Below are positions 3,725-55,855 of a DNA stretch of 64,000 nucleotides, piece after piece. The stretch comes from Amphiscolops sp. MND2022 (taxonomy: Eukaryota). Position 1 is the first letter of the stretch. Every line of letters starts with the position of its first letter. The stretch lies in NCBI GenBank assembly GCA_964187785.1, contig OZ076409.1:61196001-61260000 (forward strand), in the 5' to 3' direction. Under the pieces are notes generated by a model. The model was not told the origin of the DNA. It saw only the letters and a program-made list of their open reading frames with translations, and did not search any database. A program made the position numbers and the translations under genes.

Positions 3725-3892
3725 TTTTTGATGATTTGTTTTCTAAAAAGTCCTTAAAATCAATGGTTTTGAGGACTTTTAATTTTTGGGGTTTTGGTAG
3801 TCTAAATTGGAAAACCCTGGATTTTAATGATCTGTTTTCTAAAAAGTCCTTAAAATCAATGGTTTTGAGTACTTTTAATTTTTGGGGTTTTT
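3725..3892. repeat. ~70-bp direct repeat x2 (96-bp period) with internal hairpin, Polinton terminal region
   Basis: TTTTCTAAAAAGTCCTTAAAATCAATGGTTTTGAG(G/T)ACTTTTAATTTTTGGGGTTTT occurs twice; AAAAGTCCTTAAAA / TTTTGAGGACTTTT is self-complementary. Confidence 0.85.
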
Positions 3893-3922
3893 GCGGCCCG
3901 TATCGGGATTTCCAATACCACT

Positions 3923-4157
3923 GTCCAAATACAGAGAGCCATGAGCGATGCGATAAGTACTCAAGTACTTCCTCAAATCCAAAATGTTATTATGGCCAGA
4001 CCAGGACATGGGACCAGAAAAAGATGGGACGCTCTGACCGAGAGACCGGAGCTAAATTCCGAAGTTCAGCGAAAGCTTAACGCAAAGAGTAGCTTAAGAA
4101 ACGAACAATATGAGAATCAATTGAACGATGATTACCCTGAGCTAAATGCTCACGACA
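3923..4157 (+). repeat. Gypsy-A 5' LTR, retained 3' part
   Basis: Matches 18430-18663, ends ...CACGACA and abuts TGG. Confidence 0.9.
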
Positions 4158-5284
4158 TGGTGACAGGAGACAACGAATCTCCAAATCAAGTTCCTGAGTT
4201 TCTCACAGGACGAATCACATCCAGAAATCATCTCGACAGGTCCTTTGAGGACATCAACCTCGACACGACGATCCCAGCACAAGAAAGAATCGCTACGGCT
4301 GCTGACTCCGACCCCATCACCCGACTGGCAGACGTCTTGACTACAATGCAGAATAGACCGACAGCCCAACAACTCACCATACGCCCAGTCAACTCAAATA
4401 CCATGACATTCGATGGCAAAAGTGAAAAATTCGAGCTGTTCGAAGACCTATTTCACACTATGATCAAGATGCAGCCAGCAATGACTGAGCAAATGAAGAT
4501 CAATCACTTCCACTCTTTATTGAGAAAGAATGCCCTTCAGACATTCAGAAATATCAGCTCAAGCAACCGACAAACTCTAGAGGACGTATTAGTCATCTTT
4601 AGACGGAAATACGTCAAACCCGAGTCACAGGCGACTGCCAAACATAAATGGCACCGTCTGGTCTTCGATCCCAACACAATGAAGCTGCCTGATTTTCTCG
4701 AGGAATTAAACCAGGGAGCCGAGAAGGCGTTTGGTGATCATGCGCAGAAAATGGTTGACAGCTTGCTTTACGCAAAGCTGCCACCTAAGCTGAAGCGGTC
4801 TGTCAACATGGCCAGATTAGAAAATGGCTCATATGATGAAATTGTTGCTCATTTGGAGAGAGAGTTGGAACTCAACGCCCTTGAGGAATCAGATGACCTA
4901 CCAATGGCCACAATGACCTCCTCGACTACAAAATCTAAAACTCCTCTGTCCACCGGGCAAATGTCAGACATTACTTGCAATTATTGCAAGGAAAAGGGCC
5001 ATATGGTCAGAGACTGCGAAAAACCTAAAAAGAAAAAAGAAAAAGATGCCCAGCAAGGCAAACAAACACAGAAGAAAACGTATCCGGAGTGTAGCACTTG
5101 TGGTAAAAAGAACCACCCGGAAGAAAGATGCTGGCAAGGAGCTGGTGCGCATCTCAAACCCAAACGCACCAGACCAGATGACGCCAATGACGGCAAGCCC
5201 ACTTCAAAGGCCCAGAAACCGCAAAATAGACCAACATCTTCAAACCCACAATCCTCATCCTCTTATGATGAGTCAAAAAACTAA
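3941..5284 (+). CDS. gag: Gypsy-A Gag (true N-terminus lies further upstream in the LTR)
   Basis: Capsid-like FDGKSEKFELFEDLF region; zinc knuckles CNYCKEKGHMVRDC and CSTCGKKNHPEERC. Confidence 0.92.
   Translation: MSDAISTQVLPQIQNVIMARPGHGTRKRWDALTERPELNSEVQRKLNAKSSLRNEQYENQLNDDYPELNAHDMVTGDNESPNQVPEFLTGRITSRNHLDRSFEDINLDTTIPAQERIATAADSDPITRLADVLTTMQNRPTAQQLTIRPVNSNTMTFDGKSEKFELFEDLFHTMIKMQPAMTEQMKINHFHSLLRKNALQTFRNISSSNRQTLEDVLVIFRRKYVKPESQATAKHKWHRLVFDPNTMKLPDFLEELNQGAEKAFGDHAQKMVDSLLYAKLPPKLKRSVNMARLENGSYDEIVAHLERELELNALEESDDLPMATMTSSTTKSKTPLSTGQMSDITCNYCKEKGHMVRDCEKPKKKKEKDAQQGKQTQKKTYPECSTCGKKNHPEERCWQGAGAHLKPKRTRPDDANDGKPTSKAQKPQNRPTSSNPQSSSSYDESKN
4158..4169 (+). promoter_or_regulatory. 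Primer binding site TGGTGACAGGAG (possibly tRNA-Leu type)
   Basis: Begins with TGG immediately after the LTR end; identical 12-mer at the same position in Gypsy-B (53475-53486, -). Confidence 0.8.
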
Positions 5285-8200
5285 CTTCGCCACAACTCCA
5301 ATACAACGAACTGATATCCGTCCGCCAATACATCAGGTCGGATCCTCCAATAAAAACTTTTCATCAGTATACACAACAATTGATGGGCTATCCCTCTGTT
5401 GTCTGGCAGCAACAGATGGACAAAGCTATCATCATCACTTGTAACAACACCCATTTATTCCAAAAACCAATTCCTGTTTGGGACCCTGACTATACCACCG
5501 CCTTTACTACCCGGTTCAGGCCCATTCCCCTAGTCGATAACTACAATCCAACGTATATCGATCAAGACTACGGCAGAGATCCCTATTGGGACACCGAGAT
5601 CTATAACCAAGAACTATTACAATTTCAATACGTTCTAGATGATATTAAACACTACAATCGGACAGTCCACGAGAACCCTCCAATCACCCACAATAAGAAG
5701 ACCAGAGCATTAATTGAAAACTGGCAAATGAATGATGGCACAAACCATCCAGTGTTCCCAAACCCATTGGGGACCGAGACCCATGACAGCAATGTTGAAA
5801 CCATACCACAATCATTGCTAGACGAGAAACAGTTCCAAAATGTCTTAATCACTAGAGACGGTGAACCAGACTGTATACCCCTGTCAACCAACATCAACCT
5901 CAAATGCAAAAAACGCATGTTGTATTTCCCAATGGACTTTGGGGAATTGACCATTGACGGACTCATTGACACTGGAGCACTGTCCAGTGCAATTCCTGAA
6001 ATGGACCTCCGGAAAATTCGACTTTTATCTCCACAATCCGTTATCCGGGAAGGTCCGCCTCCGAATTTCCAAACAATGGTCGCTAATGGGCAATTGGAAA
6101 CTCCTGAGAGTACAATAGAGCTCAAATTTGAAGTTGGTGACATCGAGTTTCACGAGATTTTCATAGTGATGGAACATCTGACAGGTCCGATCATTGGACT
6201 AATGTTCCTTCAAAGAAACCATACAGTCCTGGACATGCGACAAGGGATACTGAATTTCCCGTTCTTTTCGATGCAGCTCAAAACCGCTGACCATAAGTAT
6301 TCAAATGTGTTAGAACCAATTCTCAACCCTATTGAGATAACTATTCCACCAAACGATAAAGTCCTAATTAGGACCAATTCCCTACTCTACCCTGAGAATG
6401 CTGTCACTGGACTTTTGCAACCGAGCGAACTTCTACATGAAGAAAGCGACATCACATTTTGCCCAGCTTTGGTCACTCTGAATGACGGCAATATATTGAT
6501 ACCAGTGAACAATTTCACAGACCACCCTTATAAACTCAAAAAGGGACTTCATATTGCCAATTTCTCTGTCATGACGCCAGAACAGATGAAGTATGTCAAA
6601 CCGGTAGATCCGACATCAACTTGGCACCTTTTGCAGAATGACCAGGAACAAGCAGCCCACTATGTCAGCAGTCTCATCAAGACCAATAGAAATCCACAAA
6701 ACTCCGAAAATTATTGGTTCCCGACTCCAGAAAATCCTGGAAATCCTGAGGAACACACATCTATACAAAAACGAATCCTTCGAGAATTACAGGCCTTACA
6801 GGACCTGGAGACACTTGACCCCACCAAAGACGAGGAATCGCGTGCAAAATTCTCAGAAAACTTTGACTGGAAAGATTCCACCCTTACTCCTGAAGAGAAG
6901 GAGAAAATTGAGGAATTGTTAGTGGATATCCATAACATCTTTGCACGCCACCGATTTGATATAGGCATGAACGAGGAATTCAAGGTGAAACTGACGCCTA
7001 AGGACGATTCCCCAGCCTATAGTCAAAGCCTTCCAGCCCCTATCAACTTGAAGGAAGACAACCGAGCTGAATTAGCCATGTTACACAAATATAGCATAAT
7101 AACTACGCTGCCATTTTCGAAATATGCGAGTCCAATATTTGCACAAAAGAAACCGAATGGGAAAATCCGACTCTTGGTTGACTTGAGAAAAATCAACAAC
7201 CTCATCTCGGATGATTATATCAACAATAATCACCCCGTCAGTACACTAGTTGATGCTGCCCAACACTTGGCAGGCAAAAAAACTGTTCTGTAAATTAGAC
7301 TGTTCGCAGGCATACCACTGCCTACCAATGACCGACCAACGTTCAATCGAAATGTTGGCTTTCAATTTTGCCAGTCGCACATTTGCCTACAGACGTCTGG
7401 CACAAGGCCTTAGTCGGTCACTATCCGCATTCTCGAGTTTCATGAGGGAATACCTCGACAAAGTCATTAAAGCGGATCAGTGTGCCCAGTATGTGGACGA
7501 TATCGGCATCGCAGCCAACGATGCTGACCACCTCATGACGAACCTGAGAGCTACGTTCAAATGCATTCAGGAAGCAGGCCTTAAGTTAACAATGCACAAA
7601 TGTCACTTCGGTGCAAAAGAAATTGATTTTCTCGGACGGACTATTACCCCACAAGGCGTCAAACCCCAGGAACAGAACGTGCAAAACTTCCTGGAAAAGA
7701 CCAAATTCTCGAAGTCGAAAAAGGCTTTACAGCGATATTTGGGATTCCTAAACTACTACAGGAATTATGTCCCAAGACTCTCCGAACGCCTCGCTCCATT
7801 CTACAAGATGCTCAAAAGTGACGAAAAGGTCCTAGTATCGAAAGAATTAGTCCAACAATTCGAAGAAATCAATAGAGCACTAGACAAATGCTGCGACTTG
7901 GCCCTACAGCAACCCATTCCGAACAAGCAAATAGCACTAATGACTGATGCAAGTTTTGGTGCAGCCGGGTACGCGGTCCTAATTGAAGACGACCCAAGCC
8001 AAAAATTTACATCACTCAGAAAATCGTATGCACCGGTCGCATATCGATCAAAAACTTTCACCCCAGCACAGATCAAGATGTCAATTTATGCCAAGGAATT
8101 CCTTGCAATTTATTTTGCATTCAATGGATTCGGACATATCTTCTGGGGTGCGCCGAAACCGGTCATCATCCTTACGGACAACAAAGCTGTCACGAGATTT

Positions 8201-10494
8201 TTCCATACGAAAATAATACCCCCAGCCCTGTGGAACGCGTGTGATTATGTCATTCAGTTCAATTTTGTCATAGCACACATCCTAGGAGCACAAAATACAG
8301 CTGCCGACTATTTGTCCCGATTGGAAGCAGATCCGAAGGACAAATTGGTGATGAAAATTCGTGAAGATGTACAAACACTACCAATCGAAATCAATGTCCA
8401 ATCCGCAGGGGTGTCACAAGAAGAACAAATCTTCTACACCAAGACGACGACGAGACAGAGAGAACAGTTTTGGGCAAGAAAAGAAGCAATCAGGAAGAAT
8501 CCAGCAACTGATGAGCCCACTGTTACCATAAAAACTCTGTCAACAAATCAGGTCAAGCAACACCCCGATATACAAGTCCGATTGAGGAAAACGATCCAGA
8601 TCATTATCGAGCAACCAAAAGATGCAGTACTACAACAATTGAAAGCAAAACTGCTTCATGAAGAGTATTCAGAAAATCTACTGCACCAGGATGCCCGATA
8701 TAGACATTACGCAAACAATCTGGAACGAATTGTACTAAAGGACAAAATCCTGGCAAGGCAATATTTTGATGAAACAGGGAATGTTAAATACCATCAAATT
8801 TTGCTCCCGCAACATTTACTCCAGGAATTGCTCCAATCTCTTCACGGGACGGCGCATAAACATCATGGGATTTCAAAACTGTTACAGGAAATTAGACAGA
8901 AGTAATACTACCCTAGCATGGCTAAACACGTCAAAAAGTGGGTAGAAGGGTGTGAACAATGTGCCAGAGACAAAAGAGTCGCACCTAACGCCTAACGCAA
9001 CGATCACACCTGAGCTGCTCAACTTGCCCGAATGGGACCTTGGACCTGAAGACGCCATGCAAATCGACCTATTGCCAAACCTTCCCCCAAGTGGAGGATA
9101 TGAAAATGTCCTAACGGCAATTGATGTATTCTCCAGATATTTGTTCGCCTATCCCCTTACGGACGCATCACCGATCAACGTAGCAAAAGCGCTCATTGAC
9201 ATCATGACTAAACACTCATATCTACCAACGACTCTTATCACTGATAAAGGTACTGCATTTACTTCTACAATTATTGCGGAGGTTACGCAGATTTTGGGCA
9301 TCACACTCAAATGTGCAACAACGAAACACCCGCAGACAATTGGGAAATTGGAGCGAACTCATGCCTCATTGAAAACAAATCTCAAAATGGCATGTGGGGA
9401 ATATCGCCGACAATGGCACAAATACTTGCCATTAGCAGTACTGAATCATAATACTAGTTATCACGCCAGCATCGGTTGTGAACCGACGAGAGTATTTCAC
9501 GGAAGAATTTCATTTAATATTTTGGATCACAAGCTTGGAAATAATCCAAACGAGCAGATTAACCCCACAACCGAATTTGCTGAAGAAATCCAAAACCGGA
9601 CAAAAATCCTGATTGACAAAACGAAGCAGAACATTATGCAGTCGTATATCAAGTATAAAGAATATTACGACCGCAAAGCAAAAGCCGCTCCACTAAAAGA
9701 GAACCAATACTGTTTTGTCTTACAGCCGAAAGCGGATAATCAAGGATCAAAAATTCCATTCCGCGATTACCGTTGGGTTGGACCATTTGTAGTCCAAAAA
9801 ATTCTGCCAAATGAAAACTATTTAGTACGACGGATCAATACAAACAAAACTCAAATTTTGCATCGAATTCGCCTTAAAAAGTTTGTCTCTAATCAACCGC
9901 TTGAGGACAATTTCCGAGAACAACGATTGCAGCCAGACGAAGAAATTGTCATTCCAAGATGATATATATATCATAACGTGGGAAACCGACTTTGGCGAGC
10001 AGCTAGTTACACGAGACAGCGAGACTATTCCGACTAGAGTGCCGAATGGCGAACAGCCGAATGCGGCAGAAACGAATACAAATGACGTAGCCGAGAATGA
10101 AGCGGATTACATAATCACGCGAGAAGTAACGAACAACGACAATGCGGCGCACAGCCGGAATGACCACTTAAATGATGACGTCACTGAAAGAAATGAATCT
10201 ACTGCAGCCACCGAAAATGAAGAATCTGATTGGCCGAATCCGGCCGTTTCCCCAAAAAACCAAGAAAAATCATTGCCGAATACGGCAGGTAGACCGGAAA
10301 ACGATGAAAATTTTTCAAAAAGAAACTTGACGAATGAAAACGATACACAAAATTCTCCAAACAGGGGGGAAAATATTATCGTGCCCGAAATATCCGAGAA
10401 TGATATCCGAGATGAAAGTCTGAGTCCTAGAGGAGGGAAATATAATCTCAGGCCTAATCCTAATCCGAACTACTCAGAAGACTTTAGATACTAA
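5281..10494 (+). pseudogene. pol: Gypsy-A Pol (protease, dUTPase-fold-like segment, RT, RNase H, integrase), disrupted
   Basis: LIDTGA, RLLVDLRKIN, YVDD, TDAS, ADYLSR, H..H..C..C, IDLL...TDKG...LER, GPF motifs; frameshifts near 7280, 8990 and 9956, and a stop at 8903-8905. Confidence 0.95.
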
Positions 10495-10721: not shown

Positions 10722-13700
10722 CTAGTCTTTAGAAGAACCTTGGACAGGCTTCTTAGAACTCGAGGAAAGACTTGAACTGCTGCTGCCTTGCCTCTTTCTT
10801 CGCAACTTAGAGGGGAACTTCAAGGCAGACTCATCGGGGACGGACGAAACACTCCTCTCCTCCAAGCGAACTGAGCGAGCAACAGAGATGGATGTAGTGA
10901 GCTTATACGAAGCCAATAAGCTCTTATAAATTTTCGATAGCCAAAACACATCAACATACGTCCACGGGTCATAATCGGCACCAAAGGCAGATTGTTCGAA
11001 GGTAGCACTGAGATGCGAAAATTTATCCAAATTGGCATCGGTAACGCAACAGAGATGGAATCGGGAACGGAAGAAAGATAACTTTGGCAGGGGGCAAGAT
11101 CAAATCGGTAAAACGTCCACGATAACCAGTGGTGTCTACACGCCCAAATAACACGGGAGGATACTGAGGACTGGAACTAGTCAAGCACAAACAACACAAT
11201 TTGAACAAATAGAGCAAATGTTCATGAGTCTGGAAAAACTCTAGCCCCATAAGGAAGTCAATGAGGTCCTTAGAATTCTCTAGGAGGTCGAAGTCAGGAG
11301 AGTAGTTCACTCGCAGATGGTCCAATAAGGCAATATACTCCTCCCGGCAAACATCTTGATTATCAGCTGAGACCGAAGACCGATGTTGGAAGGTAGCGTA
11401 CAACAAGTCAAAGTGACGAAGGCCAACTTCTGAAGGTCTTTTGAACAAAATGAAAGGGTCGAAAGCTGCCAACCCCTTCACAATCTCCGATTGCAGCCCG
11501 GTTTGATTGAGGACCTCCTTCAAGAGATACTGCACGAAATGGAGGCCTTCCCGAGCAAAACTGGAAGTTGCCTCGTCCGCCGTCTTCTCAATTACAGCCC
11601 TCTCAGATTTCTTTTTTAGGTGAACGATTTCAGCACTCTGTTTGCTTGCAGTCGCTACTTTGTTCACCAAGCGCAGTCGAACCAGGAAGTCCTCCTCAGT
11701 AAGAAATTTGCCTTCACTGATGGCGAAACCAAGCAAAAGGAACCAGGCGTTCTCAACAGGAATCGTCTCGGGCAGATAACAGCGGGAGCACAACTTGGAG
11801 ATGAATCGACAGACTTCCCCGCAAAGGAAGAAAGCAGCATCTCGTCTGCCCTGAAGGTTGACAACGAAACTGGATACGTCTGAAACACAACCGATCACAT
11901 GGAAAAATCCAACTATGCACCTAGAGACCAACCAAGGAAACGTGGCCTATTACCCTACCAGGATTCAAGGTCTTGGAATATGGAAATAGAGGCAAACAAT
12001 GATAAATCTAAAACGGTCCGTATACTTACAGTCACTGATAATGCGTTGGAAGAACTCTAATTTCACAACAAAGAAGGTGTCGCAGATGAGGGACCATTCA
12101 AAACTCTGAACCTGTAACATGACCTAAGTAAGTTACATGTAACTGACGTCACCGATCCATTAACCGATTGGCTTTGAAACCAACTAATTGGAACTCAAAA
12201 GGCCCGAAGAGAATTCTTACCTGGTTGTGAACCCCTTGCATGCCTTGATGAGGAGTGTGAGCAGTCAAATAGGAACGCACTGCTTTCCAGTTTTTTGACA
12301 AATCACGACAGAGACCAGGAAGATCAGGCAAACTCAATTTGCAAGTGGAAATAGCCTGAAATGAACCTCTGTTAACCAATGCATCCTGTGTACTAGTCAA
12401 CACTGCCACCCTGTGAAAGGAAAGAAACCAACTTGAGATAATTCTGGTGATTGCATTGCCCAATCCTCATCGGCAGCAGACCCTAAGGACACCACTAGAC
12501 TCTTTAACACAGAAAAAAAGTCGATTCTGCCGAACACACTGTAAGTGGGTTTGCGCATCATGGTTTGCAGGTCCAAATGCTCGAATCGGAAACAGCTCTG
12601 CACTGCTCGTGAAAACAGTGCGCATCTGTCAATGGTGCAAATCAGCTCAACGGGACAGCCGAAACAGGCGACTATGTCAGCTTTGGTAGACACGACCGAG
12701 AGAAATCTGGAAAGGGACCCCATTTCTCCCGTTAGGTCAGTTGACGGAAGTCTACTTCGGCAAATGAAGACTCTGCACAATGAGTCTCCTTTCCAAAATC
12801 TCACAGACATGAGCTTATTGACTCCAGCCCGCTCGTACTCAAGGCCGAAGCACTGTGTTGCCGCTATCTGTTCTGCCATGTCCTCCATGGCACAGGTGAA
12901 GATGTGCTGGAAGATTGCCTTAAAAGAAAATAAGAATACTAAACCGGATGTTTACATTACATCTCGGTAGTTGAAAAGAAGCAAAACTACCAACCGAGAC
13001 TCTCTCTTCACTCCAGTCAAAGTCGCAGTAGCTGGCTTGGTAGTTAGTTAGGGCGCCGACTTATGACCAAATTCGTCGCAAAATGGATAGATCTCCCTGA
13101 TGCTGCACAAAATCCGCAACGAGATGGATCTGGGTCTTGGCACGAGAAGCTGGAGTCACAAGGGTGGTCGCAGTTCCCTTGACGAAATCGTCGTAGAAGG
13201 GGAAACGTTCCCTGATATCGACCAGCTAAGCATGTATGAAGAGAGGGAGTTCTTTAGCCAGTTCTATCTTGGTCAGAACTCTGCCGTTTCTGCCCCTCAC
13301 CCGATGCTGCACCTTACCAGTGACAGGATGGACGCTCCTCAGGTGTTCATAGCGCCATCTCTGGTCCTTGCGCAAATGTTTTTCTGTCCGATGATGTCGT
13401 AAAATCTCCAAAGTGCCCTTGGACTTCACTGAAAATTTCTTTTTGCAGATATGACACCATACCATATGAGGACTGTGTAGCGGGTCGGCTGGTCCGGAGA
13501 TGAAAGATCGGGTACACCCAATCTTCGCAAAGAATTCCTCTTTCATGGGAACTCCTCTGGTGGGCCTGCGTCGCTTCTTTTGGGGCTCTCTTTGAGTCTT
13601 GCTTGGACGTGGTGCCTCCTGGTGTCGCAACTCTGACAATGTTGCATCCAAGCTCGACTGCCCGGTCGACTCGTGACCCTCGCTCTGGGGGCCGACATCA

Positions 13701-15006
13701 ACTGCTCTTTGACTGGTCGGGTCAGGTTCGACCTCATTAGGCTCCTTGAAGGCCCGAGAAATTAAGGCCATTTCTGCGGAACTGTCAGTCTCGTTTGGAG
13801 AATCAAAAACCCCATCCTCACTCTCAGTATTGGGGTCTCCGAACGAATCGGTGCCTGGCCCGGAATCATCATTACTCTGCGATCCATCACTGATGTCACT
13901 GAGGTCTCGTGGATGAGGAGTTTGTGCCCTGTGCCTGATTTTGAAATGGCCCGTACGAGACTCGGCCGTAACTGGGGCTCCTCTGACTGCGCCAAGCACC
14001 ATTTTTTCCATGGCCCTGTAAGACATCTGCAATGTCTCGTCGGTGAGGACACGGAGGAGGTGATAAACCTGTGGCTCCGTGAAGGCAACAGTCCGATGGC
14101 CTAGGGGAAGAGAGACGGTTGCGGCATCTTCATCGAAATATTGCTTCAAGATAGCCCTACTCCGCCCAGATAACTCCCTTAATTCAGGGTGAGGTGGACC
14201 TGCAGTTGTAGGCCTAGATCCAGCAGCCGAGTCCTTGGGAACACGAGTAACGGTGTCTTCTCCACTTGATGATGGGTTGTGAGGCGCAGGGATAAAGCTG
14301 TATAACTCAGGGCAACTAAGGTGGCTTGTTCCATCCCCTGTCTCTTCTGTCTCAGTTCCCTCGTCTACGAACCGTACTTTGTTTTCCCCTTGGGGAAGCT
14401 CTGGGGCGTCACAAAAAGACGAACTGTCGTCAGTCTCGAGCTGGAGGAAAAAAACTGCAGACGTTTCATTGTTGGGATTGGTGGCAGGTAATAGTTCTGG
14501 TAGTATGGTTCGAGAGGAAGTAGCAACTCTTAAGCTATTTTCCAGCTGGGTCAAATTCATTTCCAACTGGGTATTGGAAACCCCTGGAGTTGGGGTGCTG
14601 GCGCGAATAATTGGGGAAATGGGATCAGTTTGGATCGGGTTGATGGGAGAGACGTTTGTAGCACCCTCTTGGGTCTGTGTTGGCTCTCTTCCTTTGACTC
14701 CTTCGGACTCTGCAGTCTTTTCGGGCTTTTACCGGCTGGGTCAATATTCGGTGTTGAAGTCAACCCCTGGACATGCTCGTAAACCCTGTCCCTTTCTTCA
14801 GCATATGTAGTGACATCAACGTTGCTGTCAGTACTGCTGGGGGAGATGGGAGCTCTAAGGGGAGGAAATGGCGGTGGAGAAGGCATTATATTCGGTGTAG
14901 ACTGGATGTTGGAATCAGAGGCTGGTGTCGGTCCTTCCTCGGTATTTTCATTCCCTAAATGGAAGGAGATAAAATTAGGCGGTATGCTTCCTTGGAAGAA
15001 ATCCAT
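10722..15006 (-). pseudogene. Gypsy-A antisense 5-exon gene encoding a BED-finger, hAT-transposase-like protein (exons 15006-12995, 12918-12433, 12355-12221, 12111-12030, 11879-10722)
   Basis: Four GT..AG introns whose removal joins the ORF fragments in frame; WCHICKKKF...ILRHHRTEKH zinc finger; colinear homolog in Gypsy-B with the same exon lengths; this copy has stops and frameshifts in exons 1 and 5. Confidence 0.85.
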
Positions 15007-16048
15007 TTTGCCGCGTTAGAAAACTTCTAGAAGTGTCTTTCAGTTTGGCTATTTAGTCGAAACATGTGAAATAAAAAAAGAAACAGGAAGCGTTTGTGAA
15101 CAAGTTTTGTCTCTGATCAAGTCAAAATTGTTCAAACTATTAAAAGAAAATCCAGACCAACCTGACTTTGACGCCATGAAACTGCTCCCTTTGGAGGATG
15201 AGGTGTAAGCCTACAGGGGAAGGAGTCTATGGGGAATAAGCCGAATACGGCGGTGATAGAAGACTCAGAGATACTGGTTCTGACGGAAGGTGAGGAATCA
15301 GCAACAAGGTTCGTGAAGCGTAACAGCAAATAATCCCAAGGAACGAGAATTGCAGATATAAAGGAATTTGAATTGGATAAAGGAATTGGAAAATTGGAGT
15401 TCGTGGCTGAAGGAGATTTACCAGACTAATATGATTTGATTATTTACATATTTTTTCTGTACATGGAGTCTGCCAGCGAAATGTACAAGGATCTCTTCAT
15501 TATTTACAGCTTATTTAGTTATAGGCCGGTTATGGCCGTTTGCCCTGTTTTGTTTTGCCGTTTCGTCCAGTTACCCTAGTTCCCCTTGGATAGAATTTTC
15601 GCCATCTTGAATTATTTGGATTTAATTTTTTCGCCATTTTTGTTATTCAATTTTACAATTTATCAAAGCTTGATTCTGATTGGCTGAAGCCATTACGAGA
15701 AAATTGGTGGCGCGTGCCGTTAATTGCTTACAAGCGACCCGTTAATTACCCACTTGAGACAGGTGTAGTTGATATTCATAAGTCGAGCGTCATTCACACC
15801 TCTTCTAGTGATGACACTGATGAGGGGTAAACATCAGGTTATGAAAGGGAGCCGACTAATAATGGAATTCCATTCAGAAAAGTTTACGACGGATCAGAAC
15901 AACCAACCGAAGTTCTAACCGCCAAGTTGGAAACTTCGGGAAAACACCTTACTCGGCTAAATTCTTGGATTTGACAAATTCATTCTACCCTAAACTTCAT
16001 CACGATTCAGTTGCATCTACAAACTTCAAAATAGCGAAAAAAGCCATC

Positions 16049-16831
16049 ATGAGCAAATACAATCTCGCAAGGAAGTTATTTGACTTAGAAGAATTCGACT
16101 CGGACGGCTCTGAGAAATCTGTAAATTACATATCAAGCAGCGAGAGCGAAGCGTCGGACTGGGGAACGGATTGTTCCACCGACACGGAGCAGCTGATAGC
16201 GCGGATAGAGAGAGAAGTAACATCTAGCCCTATGCTCATTGGGGGAAGGGTAATGACATCGGAGATACCAGAAGAAGATGTGTCAGTGGCTGGACCAAGT
16301 ACCTCTGGTGCAAATGCTGAAAAGACGCCAAAAATGGACCATAAGTACTTTGACCTAGAAAGGTGCTATGCTCCCCCTAAGATGATGGAAAAGTCACGCA
16401 TCGAAATATGCAATACAATCTTGCCAGTTCTAGAGTCCCCGATGTCGCCACCAGATCATGAAAGAGGACCGAGTCAAGATACCCCTTTAGTCCAGCCACC
16501 AATGAGCGGGTTCTATGCGTCCTACCACATCCAAAACACCAGACCCTCTGACAACCTGAGCAGTCAGAGATATACTGGGTGCATGGTGTGTGGGAAAACA
16601 GTGGACGAGATTAAAGACGAGAAGATCAATTGGTATATGGAGAGATCAACGCCACGCGGAGAACCCGAATTTGTCACCAAACTGAGACGAGAAGCTTACA
16701 TAAACGGATTGAATGCAGGTAGTCTACTTTTCATTGCTCCCGCAGTGTCGCAGGCTGCCGCCTGTGACGGAAATAACTATACTACAGCGGCAGAACAAGA
16801 CCCGACACCAAGAACACTACCAATTTACTGA
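16049..16831 (+). CDS. Gypsy-A ORF3, unknown protein (acidic N-terminus, CxxC), ending inside the 3' LTR
   Basis: Open frame 15965-16831, first ATG at 16049; homologous to 41591-42469 (ESPxSPPxHERG, CxxCGK, SQAAACDGNNY). Confidence 0.8.
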   Translation: MSKYNLARKLFDLEEFDSDGSEKSVNYISSSESEASDWGTDCSTDTEQLIARIEREVTSSPMLIGGRVMTSEIPEEDVSVAGPSTSGANAEKTPKMDHKYFDLERCYAPPKMMEKSRIEICNTILPVLESPMSPPDHERGPSQDTPLVQPPMSGFYASYHIQNTRPSDNLSSQRYTGCMVCGKTVDEIKDEKINWYMERSTPRGEPEFVTKLRREAYINGLNAGSLLFIAPAVSQAAACDGNNYTTAAEQDPTPRTLPIY

Positions 16832-18663
16832 ATACAGGCTATGGACTTTAGAAACTTGTCCTTATTCAACGTTAGTTGTTATTTTGTGTATTCATGTAAT
16901 AGTTTCATATTTAGATGAAGTTAATATTAGTCCGTTAAAATTGTACAATTTGGAGATATCCAAATTAGGCTACTTTGTAAAAGTGTGCAGTTGAGATGTA
17001 TGTAAATTGTTGAATCAAAAGCAGTATTAATAGAAGCAACTGTAAAGCGGTATAGGAAACGAGTTCAAGTGACGCCCAGCGATAATCCAAAAACGTCACT
17101 TGAGCTCATTTTCTTAACCAATCACAGCGCTTCAATTCACGAGTGCAATATGACGTTGTTTTGGTAGTGGCCAAGTATGGCCAATTGACTTAATGTCCAC
17201 GGAGTGTTTTATGCTTTGGTCAAATGGCCGGTTTAGGCCGTCTTAATGTAACGAATGATGCTGAATTATTTGTACCCATAATTAACCATATTGGTTGGGG
17301 ACTATTCTAGAAGTGCTTTAACATTAAAATAATACTAACGTACCCCTCAACGGACCAAATGAACTGAACGCTGATCAAAGGCCGAATAAGGCCTTTTACC
17401 CTTTCCTCCCTTAGTATTGTACTATTAATCAGGATTTGGCCAATTTCAGCCCTTTTAGGAACTACCCTATTATAGTGATGCAGTGATATTTAAATAGATT
17501 GGGCATGTATTATTTGAATTTGCTTCCCCCTACGTTGACCTATAGCCACGTGGTGGCACGTGCTAACACTGCATACCAGTGCTACGAGCCTCACATTCCA
17601 TTAACAAGCTTAACATTTGTTGACATTACAATAATAATATGTAGAATAGATATGTTGTTTGAAGTACCGTTAAGAATATTTACCATTATGTTAATTGTTT
17701 GGTGTTGCATTTCGGGAAACAAACATGTCAGGAATTCTCCCAATCAGGATTTCACAGAAATAAGTGATTGATGTTTTCCGATGATATGGAAAATATGTAA
17801 ACAGGGATTTTTATGGTGCAGATACCTTTCAAAACCCATACCTGTTAAATACCAGAGATATGTAAAAATCAAGTGCATTACATACCTTACAATGTCAATC
17901 TTGGATGAAAATATGTAAAATATGTGAGTGTCACCCGCTCAGGGGTATAAATACCGGTGTTTAGCCTGAGTGGGACACAATTCATATCATACGACTCTAG
18001 AAAAGATTGATCTCCAAACGGCTTCGCTGTTATTTCCGTATTGATTAATTTGTTATTGATTCGGATTTTTTTCAATGCCCACCACTAGAAAGCAAAAGAA
18101 AGCAAGGAAGTCTAGAGGACTTGAAATGTTATCCGATATTGAAAATCTGGATATCATGTTAGGTGAGAACCATTTTGGTACCCAGAAAAGAGAAGGTAGC
18201 TTGAATAGCAATCTACCTAGAAGATCGAGGAGTTTTGCAAGTAATGAGTCCGAAAATGAAGACGGAAACGGAGGTAGACCTAAGAGAAATATTGACTCTA
18301 GGATGAATGCCGAATGAATGTGACCGCAATTCTGTCACAGGTGATTCTAGCGCTGAAACAAACAGGTTGTCCAGCGAATTAAATTCTCGTATTTCAAGGG
18401 AAATGGACGAGATGATGAATTCTGTGAGTGTCCAAATACAAAGAGCCATAAGCGATGCGATAAGTACTCAAGTACTTCCTCAAATCCAAAATGTTATTAT
18501 GGCCAGACCAGGACATGGACCAGAAAAGGATGGGACGTTCTGACCGAGAGACCGGAGCTAAATTCCGAAGTTCAGCGAAATCTTAACGCAAAGAGTAGCT
18601 TAAGAAACGAACAATATGAGAATCAATTGAACGATGATTACCCTGAGCTAAATGCTCACGACA
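16746..18663 (+). repeat. Gypsy-A 3' LTR (~1.9 kb, TGTCG...CGACA)
   Basis: End defined by the match to 3923-4157; start inferred from TGTCGCAGGCTGCCGCCTG, identical to the directly defined Gypsy-B LTR start; TATA-like TATAAATA at 17946-17953; disrupted gag 5' part from ATG 18075. Confidence 0.82.
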
Positions 18664-18691: not shown

Positions 18692-18871
18692 TCAGTTTTT
18701 TGTTTCAAAAAAGTGTTTTAGATCTGAGAACTTATGATCTGAGAAGTATGAGAATTTTTGAAATAGCCGTTGTATTCTAGCTAGAATACAACGGCCATTT
18801 CAAAAATTCTCATACTTCTCAGATCATAAGTTCTCAGATCTAAAACACTTTTTTGAAACAAAAAAAACTGA
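18692..18871. repeat. Spacerless ~180-bp palindrome
   Basis: Arms are reverse complements about 18780/18781 (..TATTCTAG|CTAGAATA..), with one mismatch and a homopolymer length difference. Confidence 0.92.
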
Positions 18872-40118: not shown

Positions 40119-40736
40119 TCAGGTCGCGTAGACGACAGAGAACAGGTACCACTTGTCATGATCATCCCTAATGTCTAATGAGCTTATTGAGCTATCTCTA
40201 GAATGGGGATGACTGTTTAAGTTTGACTGTATTCTGTTTTGGGTATTCCCCCAAGCACTTTGGTGCTTTTTACCTTCGGTGTTCCTGCTTAGTCTACTGG
40301 ACCTTGAGTCCACATTTGTCCCTAACCCGCTATTTTGTCCTGACAACGACCTTTGGATTGAAGGAAGGATTGAATCGTGAATTGCAGAATTAATAGACTC
40401 TGTAATTTGTGTGTCCAAATTCCTCTTCAGTTCATCTATTTTCCTATTCATTTGGTGGGATATTTCTTCAGAAATAAGCCTGTTAGTCTCCATAGTCATT
40501 TCACGTCTATTTCTATCTTCTGAAGTTAATAGCGTTCTAAAATCCTCGCTATTTCTGACCATGTCGGTCCTTGTCCCATTAGACCTTAAGTCCACTTCTA
40601 CATTTTCATTCGGATCAACGTCTGATTGATTTTCCTGGTAATTTCCTAACATGACATTCATATTCTCAAGATCTGACATTACGTCTGATTGCCTTGACCG
40701 TTTTTCCCTTGCCTTTTGCTTTCTTGTGGAAAGCAT
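40119..40736 (-). CDS. Gag N-terminal region duplicated in the 3' LTR, reading out into flanking DNA
   Basis: Near-identical to 53353-54069 up to DDHD; the last residues come from host flank. Confidence 0.7.
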   Translation of the reverse strand: MLSTRKQKAREKRSRQSDVMSDLENMNVMLGNYQENQSDVDPNENVEVDLRSNGTRTDMVRNSEDFRTLLTSEDRNRREMTMETNRLISEEISHQMNRKIDELKRNLDTQITESINSAIHDSILPSIQRSLSGQNSGLGTNVDSRSSRLSRNTEGKKHQSAWGNTQNRIQSNLNSHPHSRDSSISSLDIRDDHDKWYLFSVVYAT

Positions 40737-41742
40737 TTAAAATATTCAAGTCCAAACAATAATCTATTGTTTGCAAACAGTATTTCTATCAACAGAGCTA
40801 AATACAACAGTTGAACAATAATATCGTTGGGAGAGAACAAATGAAACACGGTTGGGTTCCAAGTTTAGAAGTAGTTGAGAAACTGGAATTAATCACAATT
40901 GAGGTTGTAGTCTACGTGCAGTATTTGAGAGAGATTGATCCCTGGGACTTGTGGTCCCTAAATATATAGTTGTGGAAGCATGACACGCAAAATTGCTGTT
41001 ATCACCTTACCAAAAATAGCAACTTCGCCCTAACGTCACAATGACGTTATGTGAGTAATTCTAAAAATAGCACCTATTTGCGGGCAAGTTGTGTCAAGTT
41101 CCAAAAATAGCATCGGGTAATAAACCAGTGGTCTAATAGAGCATCAAAGGACTAAATGGGGGGGGGGGGTAAGGCGGTGAGCCTTTCATCTGAGGTTTCA
41201 TGTCATTCCAAATTATACTATTTTCATGGTAGCAAGCAACGCGTACATGTAACGGACTGGTGGTCCAAAGCAATTAAGCAGGACTAAATAGAAAATAACA
41301 CACTGCAACGTGATTGGCTAGTTATCTAATGTACCACGCGTCCAAATTGACTAACGCTGAGTACAATTTGAATTCGTTTCCACTTTACTGTACTGTTGCA
41401 TCATCATTTACATTTCCATTACTAATATAATTTCCAGCTTTGTGGTTTGCATGACAAAGTATACAAGTGAATATATAATCAGACTAAAATAGCATGTTTT
41501 GTTAGGTCTGGGATAGTAATTCAACTATATGTCAACTGTAGGCAAGTAGACCTGTGGTCCATAATTTGATAAATCATTGACTAAAGTAACTTATAAGTAC
41601 AGTACATTCATAAGAGTTGTTTTAATTGGACTAGCAGTTTCTGTGTACTGAAGCGGCAATACTCCGGTAGGAAGATACATTTCACTAGCTTCATTTGGGG
41701 TGACTTGGTAGTTGTTTCCATCGCAGGCGGCAGCCTGCGACA
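40154..41742 (-). repeat. Gypsy-B 3' LTR
   Basis: Direct repeat of 53487-55073; about 40 differences counted by eye. Confidence 0.96.
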
Positions 41743-42469
41743 GTCCCCGGGGGATGAGGACAAAAGCGCCTGCTTGCATCCCTGCTTGAAAAGCATGTCG
41801 TCTACGCTGTCTTGTCTCGTAGAACTCACCAGATCTATGTGTTCTTTCTAAATAGTCGAAAGTTACCTCCTTTTGAATTATGTCCGCTGATTTGCCGCAA
41901 ATTAGACAGTCTCCATGTTGTACAAGATTCTGCACCCCACAGTGTCCGCTCGTCCTTACTGCCACTCCTGTTATGTGTGAATTAGGGGGACAGTAAGGTT
42001 CGTCTCGATCCCATCTGGGAGTCACAGGGTAGGTTTGTTGCCCACGCTCATGTGGCGGCGGTGATTGAGGAGATTCCTGTAAAGGCTCCAATTGGCTGCA
42101 GGCTGATATTGGATGACTGTCTACGTCCTCTGGCCCTACTGTCGGTGGGTGTAGTCCCAACACAAGATCTATTAGCTCGTCGTTGGGCTCAGAGACGAAG
42201 TAACTGAATTGATTGCAGAGGGAGTCGTCCTGAGACTCACTATCCACGCAATTGGATAGATCCAATGTCATGCCCCTTCCTCCTACAGTCTTAGGGACGG
42301 AAACGGGGGCTCCTCTGTAGCACGTGATCACTTCAATGTCGCTGTCGTCGTTAGGGTCCACTTCCGCATCGGAGGACGGACAGTCCACTTCCATTTCTTC
42401 GTCTGATGATTGGTTTGTGAGGCTCACCAACGGTTGAATCGACTCTTCGACGGAAAATTGTAAAGACAT
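41591..42469 (-). CDS. Gypsy-B ORF3, unknown protein ending inside the 3' LTR
   Basis: Intact 292 aa ORF homologous to Gypsy-A ORF3 in its C-terminal half. Confidence 0.8.
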   Translation of the reverse strand: MSLQFSVEESIQPLVSLTNQSSDEEMEVDCPSSDAEVDPNDDSDIEVITCYRGAPVSVPKTVGGRGMTLDLSNCVDSESQDDSLCNQFSYFVSEPNDELIDLVLGLHPPTVGPEDVDSHPISACSQLEPLQESPQSPPPHERGQQTYPVTPRWDRDEPYCPPNSHITGVAVRTSGHCGVQNLVQHGDCLICGKSADIIQKEVTFDYLERTHRSGEFYETRQRRRHAFQAGMQAGAFVLIPRGLSQAAACDGNNYQVTPNEASEMYLPTGVLPLQYTETASPIKTTLMNVLYL

Positions 42470-43758
42470 CTCGAGTAAGTGTCTATTCAGGAACAGTTTC
42501 TTAGCTATTTTGCTAGGTTATGCAAATTGTTCTATCTGAATTCGGCGAAAATTGTGAGGTGAATGATTCTTCTGATTTTACTGTTTTCCAAGATTTCTTT
42601 CTAGCCGGCGGGGAAAATCCGTGGCGGGTAATAGAGAAGATATTATTCCCAAATATTTCCATTTTCGGAAGTCCCCGTGATTTTGCTTCTTTAATTACCC
42701 TCATCATATTGGTAATCGCTCGTTCAGATAGCCCTTGAGACTCTTTCAAGTATTTGCCGTTATAAGTTAGGTGATCTTAACTGTTAGTGAAAGTGTTTAT
42801 TAACACTAATCTTCAATCAACAATAATCATCAAAGACCACCGGTCCGCCTCAACTAGTGACAACCTGCTAACCAATCAAATTCTACAGATAAATGAACGA
42901 ATTTTCTGAATGCAAATTTTGAATACATGAATGAAGTAATGGAAAGTGATGAGTCTAATCTGAAGATAATGGTCGAAATAGTGTACTAAAGGCAAAAGAT
43001 TGTAACAAAGGGATAAGAATTATGTTCTGATCAAATAGGAAGTGTACTTCTCTGACAGGTTCAGTAACACTCCGAACTATAATAAAGATGTATTCTTAAC
43101 TAATATTAGATCGGTTGGTAAGCCAAGGTACATGTAGCCACGACGTCCTTTAATTTCAAGTAGGAATGCAGGTATAGTGATTAGGTAATTAACCGTCTTG
43201 ACAGTCAGGCGTGGTAGTATTAAGTATACAATGTATGTGTTGACATAAGGTCCATTTGACGTAGTTCATTGCAAACCATATTGGCAGCATCGATTTCCCA
43301 TCTGAGCATTTGAATTCTTTACTCTCTATAACTATTTGAATTGCACACTGTGAGCATTCTTAGACAGATCTGTTCTCTCTAGGTTGCCTTTGATCTTGTA
43401 CGGCTTAACTTTTTGTCAAAGTAGCAGCATCGCCCGCAGAATTACATCCTTTTGGACTGTGAGTCGGTCCGACCTACTCTGGCGTAAATTCTTAGCTCAG
43501 TACATCATTGTGTTTTTGTTGACTTCTGCAGCAATTATTACGACTTACAGTCAAATTTCTAATACCGACAGTTGTAGCCTGAAGAAAATTCTGCCTGTCA
43601 AGATAGACAAACATCAGGTTGGTTCTTTTTCAAAGTATTTTGTCAATATTGAGCTTGATCAGGGCTTCCCATTGACTAAGTAGTCACTTCCTCCATCGTG
43701 AACTATTCAACAATAGGTTTGAACAAATAACAAACTTGCTTTCGAAAGACGCGATAGA

Positions 43759-46700
43759 ATGGATTTTTATAGCGGAAATGGATCGCGAAAATTCATTTCT
43801 TTTCGTTTAGACAACGAAATGAGTGGCCAACCAGCTCAAGACAACATCGAAGCAATGGAAACTGACCAGGCGCAACTGGAGCAACCGCAAGAGCCTGAGG
43901 TCATCGAATTGCGGACAGACCTAAGGTCCGTTATCGAACTTTCTTCTACCACAGATTCTGAAAGCTGCGAAGCATATTTCACCAGAAAGATCGAGTGTCT
44001 CACAAATTCAGAAGAGGACGTTACTGCTGCCACTAATGCAACCTCCAATGTGGCGAGAGCTAGTGAGAGCGAGCCTGTCGCTGTTACTCCAGGTCTCAAT
44101 GAGATGATACCAGACGCGAGCCGTCCTGTTGATGCTCCCGACGTTGTTTTTCTGGATAAGGCTACTGTCCAAGCAGCCATTTCCGAAGCCATTGATCCAA
44201 ATTTTGCTACAGATGAAACACCAATAATTGAGTCTCAGACCACTCAGACAACTCTACCTGAGGGCCAGGCGGTCCAGCAAAGCGAAGTTACCCCAGCCTC
44301 AAGTCCTACGGACGAGAATGGGGATGTTCAGGGACAAATGGACTACCGGTCTCAAACAGAAGACGAGTCTTGTCCTGGAATGGACACCGATACTGGGTCT
44401 ATTGCTAGATCCACATTAGCCCAAGCCCTCTACAGTCCCTCCAAGCCCGGCAACGTCTCTCTTCCCCAAACATCAAGTCAGGACATGAGTGATCCATTAC
44501 CACCTGAGCCTAGGGGACCCACTCCTCTTTCCAGTACCAGTAGACTGATCATCAAGCAGTGTTTTGAGGAGACAAACCCCACATACCTCTCTCCTGGGCA
44601 TATGACTGTTGCGTTCAATCAAGATCAAATCAACAGCATATTACGCATTGTAGCTGATGAGAGTGCTCGTGCGTCATACGAGATGTTAAACAGCGTGGTC
44701 GTCCGCGCTAGTCGACTGAACTTACACAGTCCCCGTGGTACTACTGCCCGAAAACACACTCAAGAAGGGTCTCACCCTGGCACTGATACAGATGTGGGAA
44801 GTGATTCCGTCATGACCTACGATACGAGAGGTAGTGACAGCAGTCCCGGATTTACCAGTGGCCTAGAGTCCAATCGGGACTTTCAGTCCTCATTTGCTCT
44901 TCCAGTCCCCCCCTTTGTCCTCGAGAAAATCAACTGGTCCAAAGGAGTTCCCCCGTCTCCTTTGACTGTTCCAGTCATGGAACTGAAACTTTGGCAGCTC
45001 TAAGGCAAGAAGCCATTAAGGAAAAGGAAAAGGGGAGATTGCCACCACAAGTCCAACCAAAGTCTAAGAGACCATCAAGGCCCAGGAGAAGAATTGGGAG
45101 GATTATGAAGGAAGAGTACTTTGATAGCATGCCATGGACACGTGTATTTGTTTCAGGACCATTAGACCCCAAATGGAATCCCAATAAGATCTACTGTCAA
45201 ATCTGTAAATGTAATGTGTCCATTAAGACTAAGGGCCTAAAAGAGATCTTGAGGCACTACGCGACTGAGAGGCATCTTCGAAAAGATCAACGTTGGAGGT
45301 ACGAGTACCTGCCCATTGAGGACCCCATCACTAAAAAACTGCGCCATCAGGTGAGAGGGAAAGATGGGAAATTCTTTCCCATTACCAATTGCGACTGGAA
45401 TTGCCCCTGTTCATCAATGCCGAATTGGTAGACATAGAGGAGAAACTCCCATTCTATGAGGAATCTATGTCTGGAGCTGATCACATGGCCTCATCCCCCC
45501 AAAATCGAGCTCGAATACAAATTTCAATCTTGGGGCACTATCTCCCACTGTCTGGTGACGTTTCTGTCCTCCGAACCCTTTGGCAACACACTGGAACTGT
45601 TGTGAATCATCAGGCTCTCTTCGCAGACATTGACTGCAGCACGGCTAAATTATCGATGAGTGGTCTCCATCTGGCTTTCATACTCATTGTCTAGTTGGGT
45701 ACTCAATACTGTCATTGAATAGTAGTTAGGCCATCATAGGTAAAGCAGACTTGGAGTCAAGGATCAGTTAGCACTACCTCAAAGTTTAGGGTTGTCAATT
45801 CAAGTACTACAATGTGGTCACCGGATTGTATTTGTTCTAGGTGTTGTTTCACCATCTGTTCCAACAAGTCGTCCCGAATCTTGGCAATGACATCCTCACT
45901 GATGGCCAATATTCAATTGAATTCGAAGTTCAGGGAGTGTTCCTCCTCCTGCACGTTCGGTTATGGAAGAAGGACAGGCACTGTCGAGTGTACCTCCAAA
46001 GGACCGGGCGTACTACCGGACGTTGCGCAGCCGAGTTGTGTCTGCTGTCCACCTTGCTCGCTGCTATATCATCAGAAGCAGATTTAGTGTGTTGCTCCGG
46101 TGCCACCCAGAACTTCGTTCAGCTAGTTGACGACTCTCCTCTTACCAACCACGGAGTACAAAGACCCACCACCTTTGATGATATTGCTATCAAACGCCTA
46201 ATGCATCGGGACAGCTACAGTGTGTTTGGTCGTATAGACTTTTTATCTGTACTTCATTATCTAGTTATCAGCCTGGGGGGAAGTTTATATTTGGAGTGGA
46301 CCTTACTCACCCCTGAATTAGTCAAGGTTAGGACCTTTAACAATCCAGTTGTCGACGTAAGTTAATTACACCTACGATTTGTTGCTTTCGATTTAGGCCA
46401 TAAAGTCGAGTCGACTTGACGTAGTAACTGGGCCAACCCTCTGCCAAGAATTAATTGCGAACTGGAAGGCTGTCACAACATACCTCACAGCACATGTGGT
46501 ACAACAACAAATGCAAGGAGTTCGTAGCCAGGTTGGGAGTCCCTTCCTTATCAGTCTTCTGGTCCACAGTACGTCTTGTGTTCAAGTCTTTTCATTTCAG
46601 CCCCAGAGCCTTGAATGGTCCATCATTCACGATGATTTTTTCACCTGCCATCTCGAGTTATTCCACAAACTAGTCCGTGATTGTTAGTGCTTTGAGATTT

Positions 46701-47200
46701 CCTTCCTTTATTAGTGCATCTTAATGACAGTAATAGGGTCATTTGCAATGCAGTAGTTTTGGTTTCCTTTCGTATAAATGTTCTTTAGGGTTACTCTGGG
46801 ACATAAGACCGAAGGGACGTGAGCTAGTACCAGACTGGTCTTTTATTTTGGGAATAAGTATACAATGCATGACTAATCCTTTTGTTTAGACACAACCAAT
46901 TTCTCACTCAGCCTCAATGGACGACGCGACAGGGCATTCTACTCTTTCAGACAACTGTGTCTGTACCTTCGCAAGCTTGCGAAACGAATTGTATTGCCAA
47001 ACGCCCTTCCTGAGGTGAACGATCCCGCAGCCATCCTGGACCTGGATATAAACGTTGCCCCTGCGCTGAGCGTCACTGTTTTCCTCAATCGCCTGAAGTT
47101 CAGGGCCAAGTTGGACCATGCTTGCAAATTGAAAGCGGAAGTAGATTTTCATGACCAGAAGGGCGAAAAAAAGAAAACACTCGAAGAGTTGACTGCCTGT
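43759..47200 (+). pseudogene. Gypsy-B antisense 5-exon BED-finger, hAT-like gene, 3' truncated (exons 43759-45655, 45841-46326, 46397-46531, 46601-46682, 46890-~47200)
   Basis: IYCQICKCNV...ILRHYATERH; splice sites at positions homologous to Gypsy-A; intron 1 donor reads ATGAGT (probably mutated GTGAGT); CTAAT branch-like motif before the last acceptor. Confidence 0.85.
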
Positions 47201-47317
47201 AGTTATTTGTATCTTTTGTTTGTCTTTCATTATTGTATTTGTGTTGTAGTTGAGTCTAAAGTCAGATTGGTCTCAGAGTCAAAATAGTAAATGGGGACCA
47301 GCAATAAATGAATCTGG

Positions 47318-54069: not shown

Positions 54070-55073
54070 TCAAAATATTCAAGTCCAAACAATAATCTAT
54101 TGTTTGCAAACAGTATTTCTATCAACAGAGCTAAATACAACAGTTGAACAATAATATCGTTGGGAGAGAACAAATGGAACACGGTTGGGTTCCAAGTTTA
54201 GAAGTAGTTGAGAAACTGGAATTAATCACAATTGAGGTTGTAGTCTACGTGCAGTATTTGAGAGAGATTGATCCCTGGGACTTGTGATCCCTAAATAAAT
54301 AGTTGTGGAAGCATGACACGCAAAATTGCTGTTATCACCTTACCAAAAACAGCAACTTCGCCCTAACGTCACAATGACGTTATGTGAGTAATTCTAAAAT
54401 TAGCATCTATTTGCGGGCAAGTAGTGTCAAGTTCCAAAAATAGCATCGGGTAATAAACCAGTGGTCTAATAGAGCATCAAAGGACTAAATGGGGGGGGGG
54501 TAAGGCGGTGAGCCTTTCATCTGAGGTTTCATGTCATTCCAAATTACACTATTTTCATGGTAGCAAGCAACGCGTACATGTAACGGACTGGTGGTCCAAA
54601 GCAACTAAGCAGGACTAAATAGAAAATAACACACTGCAACGTGATTGACTAGTTATCTAATGTACCACGCGCCCAAATTGACTAACGCTGAGTACAATTT
54701 GAACGCGTTTCCAATTTACTGTACTGTTGCATCATCATTTACATTTCCATTAATAATCTAATTTCCAGCTTTGTGGTTTGCATGACAAAGTATACAATTG
54801 AATATATAACCAGACTAAAATAGCATGTATTGTTAGGTCTGGGATAGTAATTCAACTATATGTCAACTGTAGGCAAGTAGACCTGTGGTCCATAAATTAA
54901 TAAATCATTGACTAAAGTAGCTTATAAGCACAGTACATTCATAAGAGTTGTTTTAAGTTGACTAGCAGTTTCTGTGTACTAAAGCGGCAATACTCCGGTA
55001 GGAAGATACATTTCACTAGCTTCATTTGGGGTGACTTGGTAGTTGTTTCCATTGCAGGCGGCAGCCTGCGACA
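53487..55073 (-). repeat. Gypsy-B 5' LTR
   Basis: Direct repeat of 40154-41742. Confidence 0.96.
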
Positions 55074-55849: not shown

Positions 55850-55855
55850 TTATTT

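Follow-up and report, generated by a model that had tools for sequence, protein, structure and literature searches.

A gene that runs antisense to the coding strand of Ty3/gypsy-type LTR retrotransposons is, as judged by comparison of its copies, retained across an entire clade of these elements under purifying selection. The structure predicted for the encoded protein makes descent from a hAT-type DNA transposase very probable. We propose, with about even confidence, that the product of this presumably hAT-derived, non-DDE gene acts in the nucleus as a DNA-binding activator or anti-silencing factor, serving the element that carries it. The analysis centred on one copy in a 64,000-nucleotide stretch of DNA (hereafter, the window), which is part of a eukaryotic assembly of 1.07 Gb.

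In the window, the antisense gene is housed in a plus-strand Ty3/gypsy-type element, with pol to one side and the 3' LTR to the other. Over the elements examined, the carriers have the features of this type, namely gag, pol (protease, RT, RNase H and integrase, in that order), TG...CA LTRs, a primer-binding site and a short target site duplication (TSD). The gag gene, with zinc knuckles, lies at 3869..5284 (+), its 5' part gone along with the truncated LTR, and pol (5272..10494, +) is split over four frames in this copy. A 236-bp remnant of the 5' LTR (3922..4157, +), 97% identical to the end of the 3' LTR, is directly followed by a primer-binding-site-like TGGTGACAGGAG (4158-4169) that is common to all families examined; this 12-mer is identical behind the 5' LTR even where the integrases of the families are only ~50% identical. 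The antisense gene itself (15006-10722, -) has five exons and encodes about 1,290 aa in unbroken copies. Between its start and the divergently oriented sense ORF3 (15863..16831, +; 322 aa, no Pfam match) lies a spacer (15007..15862), a candidate two-way promoter. Counted over the spacers of other copies, with the window copy excluded, short spacer motifs are common to 7–9 of 13 subfamily representatives, against a shuffle maximum of 3–5. ORF3 ends within the 3' LTR (16746..18663, +; TG...CA).

Several further properties of the carrier were recorded. An ORF3 of ~320 aa with a C-x2-C motif (15863-16831 and 41591-42517 in the window) adjoins the gene in most families examined; the most divergent family yielded no detectable counterpart. 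The start of the 3' LTR falls within the ORF3 coding sequence, and the start of gag likewise lies inside the LTR. No purine-rich tract was found upstream of the 3' LTR in the window (16721-16745) or in the L036, L034 and L049 elements, where the sequence is pyrimidine-rich, ends in AG and codes for ORF3; plus-strand priming of the element may be unusual. A near-perfect palindrome of 170 bp (18696-18865) is located immediately to the right of the 3' LTR.

The exon boundaries of the antisense gene were fixed on four reference copies and then projected by homology over 62 copies. Exon A (12995..15006, -) begins with a conserved Met at 15006, the start of the gene, and encodes an N-terminus of about 490 aa that is rich in Ser, Pro, Thr and Glu, probably disordered, and ends in a basic NLS-like patch; it continues with a 182-aa core consisting of a BED-type zinc finger, C-x2-C...H-x5-H (13376..13459, -), and a helical region. 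Exon B (12433..12918, -; 162 codons) encodes a predicted RNase H-like core that matches Hermes 149-264 and, in the model, runs in the order helix, three strands, helix, strand, helix, strand. Exon C (12221..12355, -; 45 codons) covers the expected hAT RW region and contains an invariant Trp downstream of the expected RW site, exon D (12030..12111, -) comprises 27 codons plus 1 base, and exon E (10722..11879, -; about 385 codons) encodes a helical domain with a tentative match to Hermes 368-609. The layout of the protein in unbroken copies is thus 490 low-complexity residues, the last of which form the basic patch, and a core of about 800 residues.

Splice signals and exon lengths are strongly conserved. 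GT/AG dinucleotides were present at 445 of the 450 projected splice sites of the 62 copies that the alignment reached, 20 of 470 possible sites being left uncounted. Intron lengths are free to vary (64–273 bp, all three length classes), and exons B, C and D are constant at 162, 45 and 27 codons, apart from a few short deletions; exon B has zero indels in 24 copies that span 33–96% identity. Intron 3 is precisely missing, with exons C and D fused, in 13 of the 62 copies and also in a single database protein from a different family, which confirms the C-D junction and, at the sequence level, suggests that the loss arose when cDNA from a spliced antisense transcript recombined with the element. 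Intron 1 is in-frame and stop-free in some subfamilies (P0264, P0261, P0239, P0252, L042; the P0264 cluster has 24 members), so that retention of this intron could give rise to a shorter protein.

All ten motifs quoted in the original prediction are found, in the order that it gave, on the minus strand of the window: WCHICKKKF (13459), ILRHHRTEKH (13405), EQIAATQCFGLEYE (12873), KLMSVRFW (12816), DIVACFGC (12678), KLEFFQRIISD (12063), VSSFVVNLQG (11877), FVQYLLKEV (11538), IVKGLAAFDP (11484) and LLYLFKLCCLCLTSSS (11217). The spliced join that it placed between IISD and VSSF corresponds to a conserved phase-1 GT..AG intron (donors conserved in 61 of 62 copies, acceptors in 57 of 57). The extent of 11023-13470 that it assigned to the gene was too small, as the gene runs from the conserved Met at 15006 to 10722, and the 45-codon exon at 12355-12221 had been overlooked. 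The premature end at 11023 stems from frameshifts in exon E of the window copy, near 11092-11050; this copy is further broken by stops at 13228 and 13063 and by a frameshift in exon A near 14689-14788, which makes three frameshifts in all. Chance is ruled out, a single search having listed at least 150 copies at 73–100% identity.

A first look yielded about 7,000 candidate copies, and a search with the exon E profile returned 849 representatives at 50% clustering. All core exons are open in 39 of the 62 copies. Between subfamilies, dS is saturated or >0.8 with dN of 0.015–0.36, and third-position changes predominate in all 11 of the pairs compared; within subfamilies, most ratios are <0.2, and the one value of 0.45 has very few changes behind it. 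Ten relatives that were looked up are all ENA records, and one has only 29–32% identity to this genome, which indicates that relatives exist elsewhere.

The gene is inherited with the element. Of 60 ten-kb loci, a non-random set taken from search hits, 56 have the gene facing integrase, and its identities co-diverge with those of the integrase (Spearman rho 0.94 over 190 non-independent pairs from 20 loci). Of ten loci that were reconstructed, nine are complete elements of 16 kb whose LTRs are 98.9–100% identical and which have 5-bp TSDs, as read by eye, and both loci of the most divergent family are likewise full elements with near-identical LTRs and 5-bp TSDs. The gene keeps its position even between families whose protein identity is as low as 17%. 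Domestication by a retrotransposon, as originally proposed, is thus strongly supported by splice sites, selection, full elements, position and co-divergence with integrase.

The window itself holds a homologous gene from a second family (43759..47287, +), with 34–58% aa identity, which is broken and truncated in exon E; its host is an LTR element on the minus strand (40154-55073) with 1,589-bp LTRs that are 97% alike and a 5-bp TSD. An adjoining LTR element (55457-61928) has 393-bp LTRs, also 97% alike, and its gag and pol, to judge by their motifs, are presumably BEL/Pao-like. Elsewhere in the genome, we noted a tandem array of whole elements (three matches 14,673 bp apart, G000:C7 62497461, 62512134 and 62526807), a different gypsy-like element with extra, possibly env-like, ORFs downstream (L190-L189), and several classical hAT transposase ORFs of 600–700 aa with intact motifs (L091-L095).

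The assignment of the antisense protein to the hAT superfamily, originally made by eye, is supported by predicted structure, the models of both halves being colinear with Hermes, whereas sequence profiles provide no link. Pfam detected no hAT family on pieces of the window or in any of 105 relatives searched (of at least 150 listed), nor did Pfam zf-BED match the finger, whose BED type rests on its pattern and on the model. PDB profile searches with the exon A, B and E alignments gave no significant match; in hmmsearch, the core profile against the ORFs of 40 genomic hAT loci reached a best E of 0.034, which is noise; and hhalign against 74 THAP12/ZMYM1-type hATs returned a probability of 0.14, within the range of 30 block-shuffled controls (0.10–1.52). 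The hAT profile templates comprised only the THAP12 type and the genome's own hATs. As a control, a true genomic hAT matches Hermes at 1e-20; a DUF4371 search of the genome had no match anywhere, its controls being equally silent.

At the level of leads, ESM features connect the N-half with N-terminal hAT families and the C-half with the C-terminal hAT domain, 22 of 30 Atlas matches falling in PF05699 clusters. For the N-half, the fold was predicted on a naturally occurring frame that reads through a short intron (mean pLDDT 54.6), and the model contains a BED-like finger (two strands, then a helix) and an RNase H-like strand order. Foldseek placed Hermes at ranks 1–7 of 350,542 chains for this half, with a best E of 4.9e-3, and VIA placed it at rank 3 of 48,161 (Z 5.1, rmsd 3.4, 79 aligned), a second look with VIA returning five Hermes entries at ranks 1–5 (Z 5.2–5.6); overall, the VIA matches had Z of 5.1–5.6 and rmsd of 3.1–4.1, with 78–89 residues aligned. 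The C-half model, from exon E, is confident (pLDDT 90.5). Foldseek found nothing for it at E<=0.001, and VIA ranked Hermes 10th of 48,161 (Z 5.3, rmsd 5.9, 160 aligned), the only entry with >100 aligned residues among the best 50 of 48,161; in this alignment, residues 1-267 are colinear with Hermes 368-609. These scores are modest, all Z values being <8 and "middling" by VIA's own scale, and the hAT reading depends mainly on the fact that two independently folded halves select the same protein, in the expected order and in adjacent regions of Hermes.

The catalytic sites were located by strand register and motif counting and not by residue-level superposition; the Hermes catalytic residues, which we take to be D180, D248 and E572, were positioned through an alignment of a genomic hAT with Hermes. 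Under this inferred register, the first-Asp site (exon B position 29) is E in 62, V in 11, I in 5, K in 1, L in 1 and D in none of 80 exon B sequences, and a near-invariant Glu is found two residues before it (position 27; 75 of 80), although the most divergent family does not have even a first-strand Glu. The second-Asp site is G in 79 sequences and S in 1. At the CxxH site, C and P each occur in 37 of the 80, and Phe replaces the H in all 80. No RW motif is present in exon C of 39 copies. The third-Glu site is a Pro-rich coil in which an acid is not conserved (0–15 of about 118 at positions 239-245), ER.FS is absent from all 149 rows and present in 67 of 74 control hATs, and in the exon E model the Glu-bearing helix is replaced by a coil and hairpin. 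Asp133 is invariant (24 of 24 in one alignment). The zinc ligands are nearly perfectly preserved in unbroken copies, with both Cys and the first His in 39 of 39 and the last His in 38 of 39. The original view that the DDE triad, CxxH and RW had all been lost stands for the second Asp, the third Glu, CxxH and RW and is too strong for the first site, at or near which a Glu persists in most copies. From these residues and the models, a two-metal centre is unlikely, a judgement we hold with high confidence.

One subfamily, of about nine near-identical copies, sits outside LTR elements. Its open gene copy is aboard a CACTA/EnSpm-type unit of 35.3 kb that is 99.6% identical at two loci (L188/L177/L157/L178, G000:C2 about 29298730-29334035; and L191/L179/L180/L181), bounded by inverted CCCC...GGGG termini some 37 bp long and by apparent TSDs of 2 bp. 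The unit encodes a DUF1258/Transposase_21/DUF4218 transposase and has a weak SET match (E 0.075). Enlarged CACTA elements have been noted before, in the accessible text of PMC6431247. The CACTA-borne gene is accompanied by upstream conserved blocks; gag, pol and ORF3 are absent. A tree built from 33 exon E sequences places it as sister to LTR-borne copies (100/100) and, with a midpoint root, nests it among them, so that the transfer was probably from the retroelement. Among themselves, the CACTA-borne copies diverge neutrally (5 synonymous and 16 non-synonymous changes), so that selection on the gene within this carrier is at most suggested. Carriage without gag or pol fits a portable role in chromatin better than a retroelement-specific one. 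It is conceivable, if on balance doubtful, that the protein is a catalytically dead, sequence-specific activator or anti-silencing factor, a whole hAT transposase domesticated by gypsy-type elements, and that its intron-bearing gene and the control blocks upstream of it form a portable module, subsequently captured and kept by a giant CACTA element.

A possible course of events can be outlined. An ancestral hAT would have inserted in reverse behind pol and later lost its ends. The introns, which are opposite to the strand of the genomic RNA and kept across families, would be spared from retrotransposition by this orientation, and the antisense transcript would be made and spliced, as the precise loss of intron 3 suggests. 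By prediction, the BED finger and the RNase H-like scaffold were kept, as was, more tentatively, a helical insertion domain; with the second Asp replaced by Gly and the third Glu and CxxH gone under the inferred register, the protein would bind DNA and not cut it. We propose that binding to LTR or spacer motifs would be through the finger, and that the acidic low-complexity N-terminus would open chromatin or recruit the transcription machinery, raising the element's own expression. Activation or anti-silencing is the best fit because the finger and scaffold are kept, catalysis is lost, and there are an acidic tail, spacer motifs and portability between carriers. A recent preprint (bioRxiv 10.64898/2026.08.24.746577) describes, in its available main text, transposases as intrinsic transcriptional activators, with loss of catalysis yielding regulators.

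Three alternatives concern what the protein is. It might resemble hAT transposases only superficially, combining a zinc finger with generic RNase H-like sheet and helices of some other source; the uniformly negative profile searches, the Z values below 8 and the silence of Foldseek for exon E would be expected under this reading, which is nonetheless improbable, since both halves pick Hermes from tens of thousands of chains, in order and in adjacent regions, and ESM features match each half to the corresponding hAT families or domain. An ordinary hAT transposon recently nested in the retroelement might be suspected in a genome where real hATs are numerous (at least 150 PF05699 matches). No terminal inverted repeats (TIRs) surround the gene, the spacers on its two sides sharing no exact inverted match longer than 9–12 bp in 7 elements, and no 8-bp TSD was found, only the 5-bp TSDs at the LTR ends; the DDE triad is not intact, and the gene occupies the same place in families as distant as 17% protein identity. 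An intact DDE with TIRs or an 8-bp TSD, which the original prediction had named as the sign of such an insertion, is thus absent, and we reject this candidate as extremely improbable. An altered nuclease or strand-transfer activity could be imagined to use the Glu residues at exon B positions 27 and 29 together with other acidic residues, such as the invariant Asp133, but the Gly at the second-Asp site (79 of 80), the lack of ER.FS in 149 rows, the third-Glu window without a conserved acid and the absence of the first-strand Glu from the most divergent family make such an activity quite improbable.

The remaining alternatives concern what the protein does. With the same hAT origin, it might bind genomic DNA or chromatin together with the integrase complex and so steer insertion, a targeting or tethering role with which the co-divergence with integrase, the retained DNA-binding finger and the long, flexible N-terminus would agree. 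Co-divergence, however, would result from linkage alone, the TSD sequences are mutually unlike and reveal no evident sequence target, and an open copy resides in a CACTA-type DNA transposon that has no integrase; we consider targeting rather unlikely. Domesticated BED proteins of hosts include repressors, and the protein could correspondingly be a self-limiting repressor or a decoy against host silencing proteins; alternatively, antisense transcription itself could be the main function. Antisense transcription can regulate LTR elements, according to the accessible text of PMC7264820. RNA by itself is excluded, since selection acts at the amino-acid level on about 750 residues of the core, and the carriers are very active, as attested by candidate copies in the thousands and by young LTR pairs; these possibilities together appear distinctly unlikely.

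Comparison with Hermes (PDB 8edg, 4d1q, 2bw3) brings out both likeness and differences. The predicted order of BED finger, helical region, RNase H-like core, a tentative helical insertion and C-terminal helix is the same, with 8–13% identity in structural alignments. Unlike Hermes, the antisense protein has no DDE, CxxH or RW, its Glu helix is replaced, and its gene has neither TIRs nor an 8-bp TSD; beyond Hermes, it possesses the N-terminus of 490 aa, a hairpin inserted behind the finger and some 120 additional residues at the C-terminal end. ZBED proteins are host-domesticated, non-mobilising, DNA-binding hAT derivatives. DAYSLEEPER/SLEEPER proteins are similarly hAT-derived, non-mobilising and DNA-binding, as far as the available part of PMC3499209 describes them, the binding being predicted in our case. 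DAYSLEEPER/SLEEPER and ZBED are single host genes, whereas the antisense gene is a multicopy cargo inherited with the retroelement. Spm TnpA, FAR1 and MUSTANG are transposase-derived DNA-binding regulators that have lost catalysis (10.64898/2026.08.24.746577, main text), and VANC proteins are DNA-binding anti-silencing proteins kept by transposons (PMC10398659, in its accessible part). These regulators arise in the host or inside one and the same superfamily of DNA transposons; here, a class II enzyme would have been taken over by a class I element. The words "retrotransposon" and "LTR" are absent from the main text of the preprint, to the extent that it is available.

Antisense extra ORFs in plant LTR elements and accessory genes shared between element classes in rotifers are already known. 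The antisense ORFs of the plant elements Retand, Grande and RIRE2 (TRP28, gene23), whose origin is given as unknown in the accessible parts of PMC7264820 and PMC11963269, resemble the present gene in being antisense, located between pol and the 3' LTR, kept by most members of a lineage and proposed to encode nuclear DNA-binding regulators; similarity to other transposon proteins was not found in those parts of the two papers. Unlike the Retand and Grande ORFs, the gene described here encodes a near full-length protein of predicted hAT fold and has four conserved introns, and Pfam detected no TRP28 domain (PF04195) in the antisense protein or the relatives searched. LTR elements of bdelloid rotifers carry captured ORF3 enzymes that, as in our case, are accessory genes common to unrelated element types (PMC5408684); those are esterases, exonucleases or env, with no transposase among them in the accessible text. 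A literature search, with most subscription papers, Repbase Reports and supplements outside its scope, did not turn up an LTR clade in which a hAT-derived gene has become fixed.

Antisense extra genes in LTR elements are described in reviews as resembling nothing known. Here, one of them, present in hundreds to thousands of copies and under strong selection, is traced by its predicted fold to a DNA transposase. Transposons would, in this case, have domesticated one another's enzymes, and the proposed route from transposase to transcription factor would extend across element classes. The antisense protein is, moreover, a concrete candidate for an animal-type anti-silencing factor.
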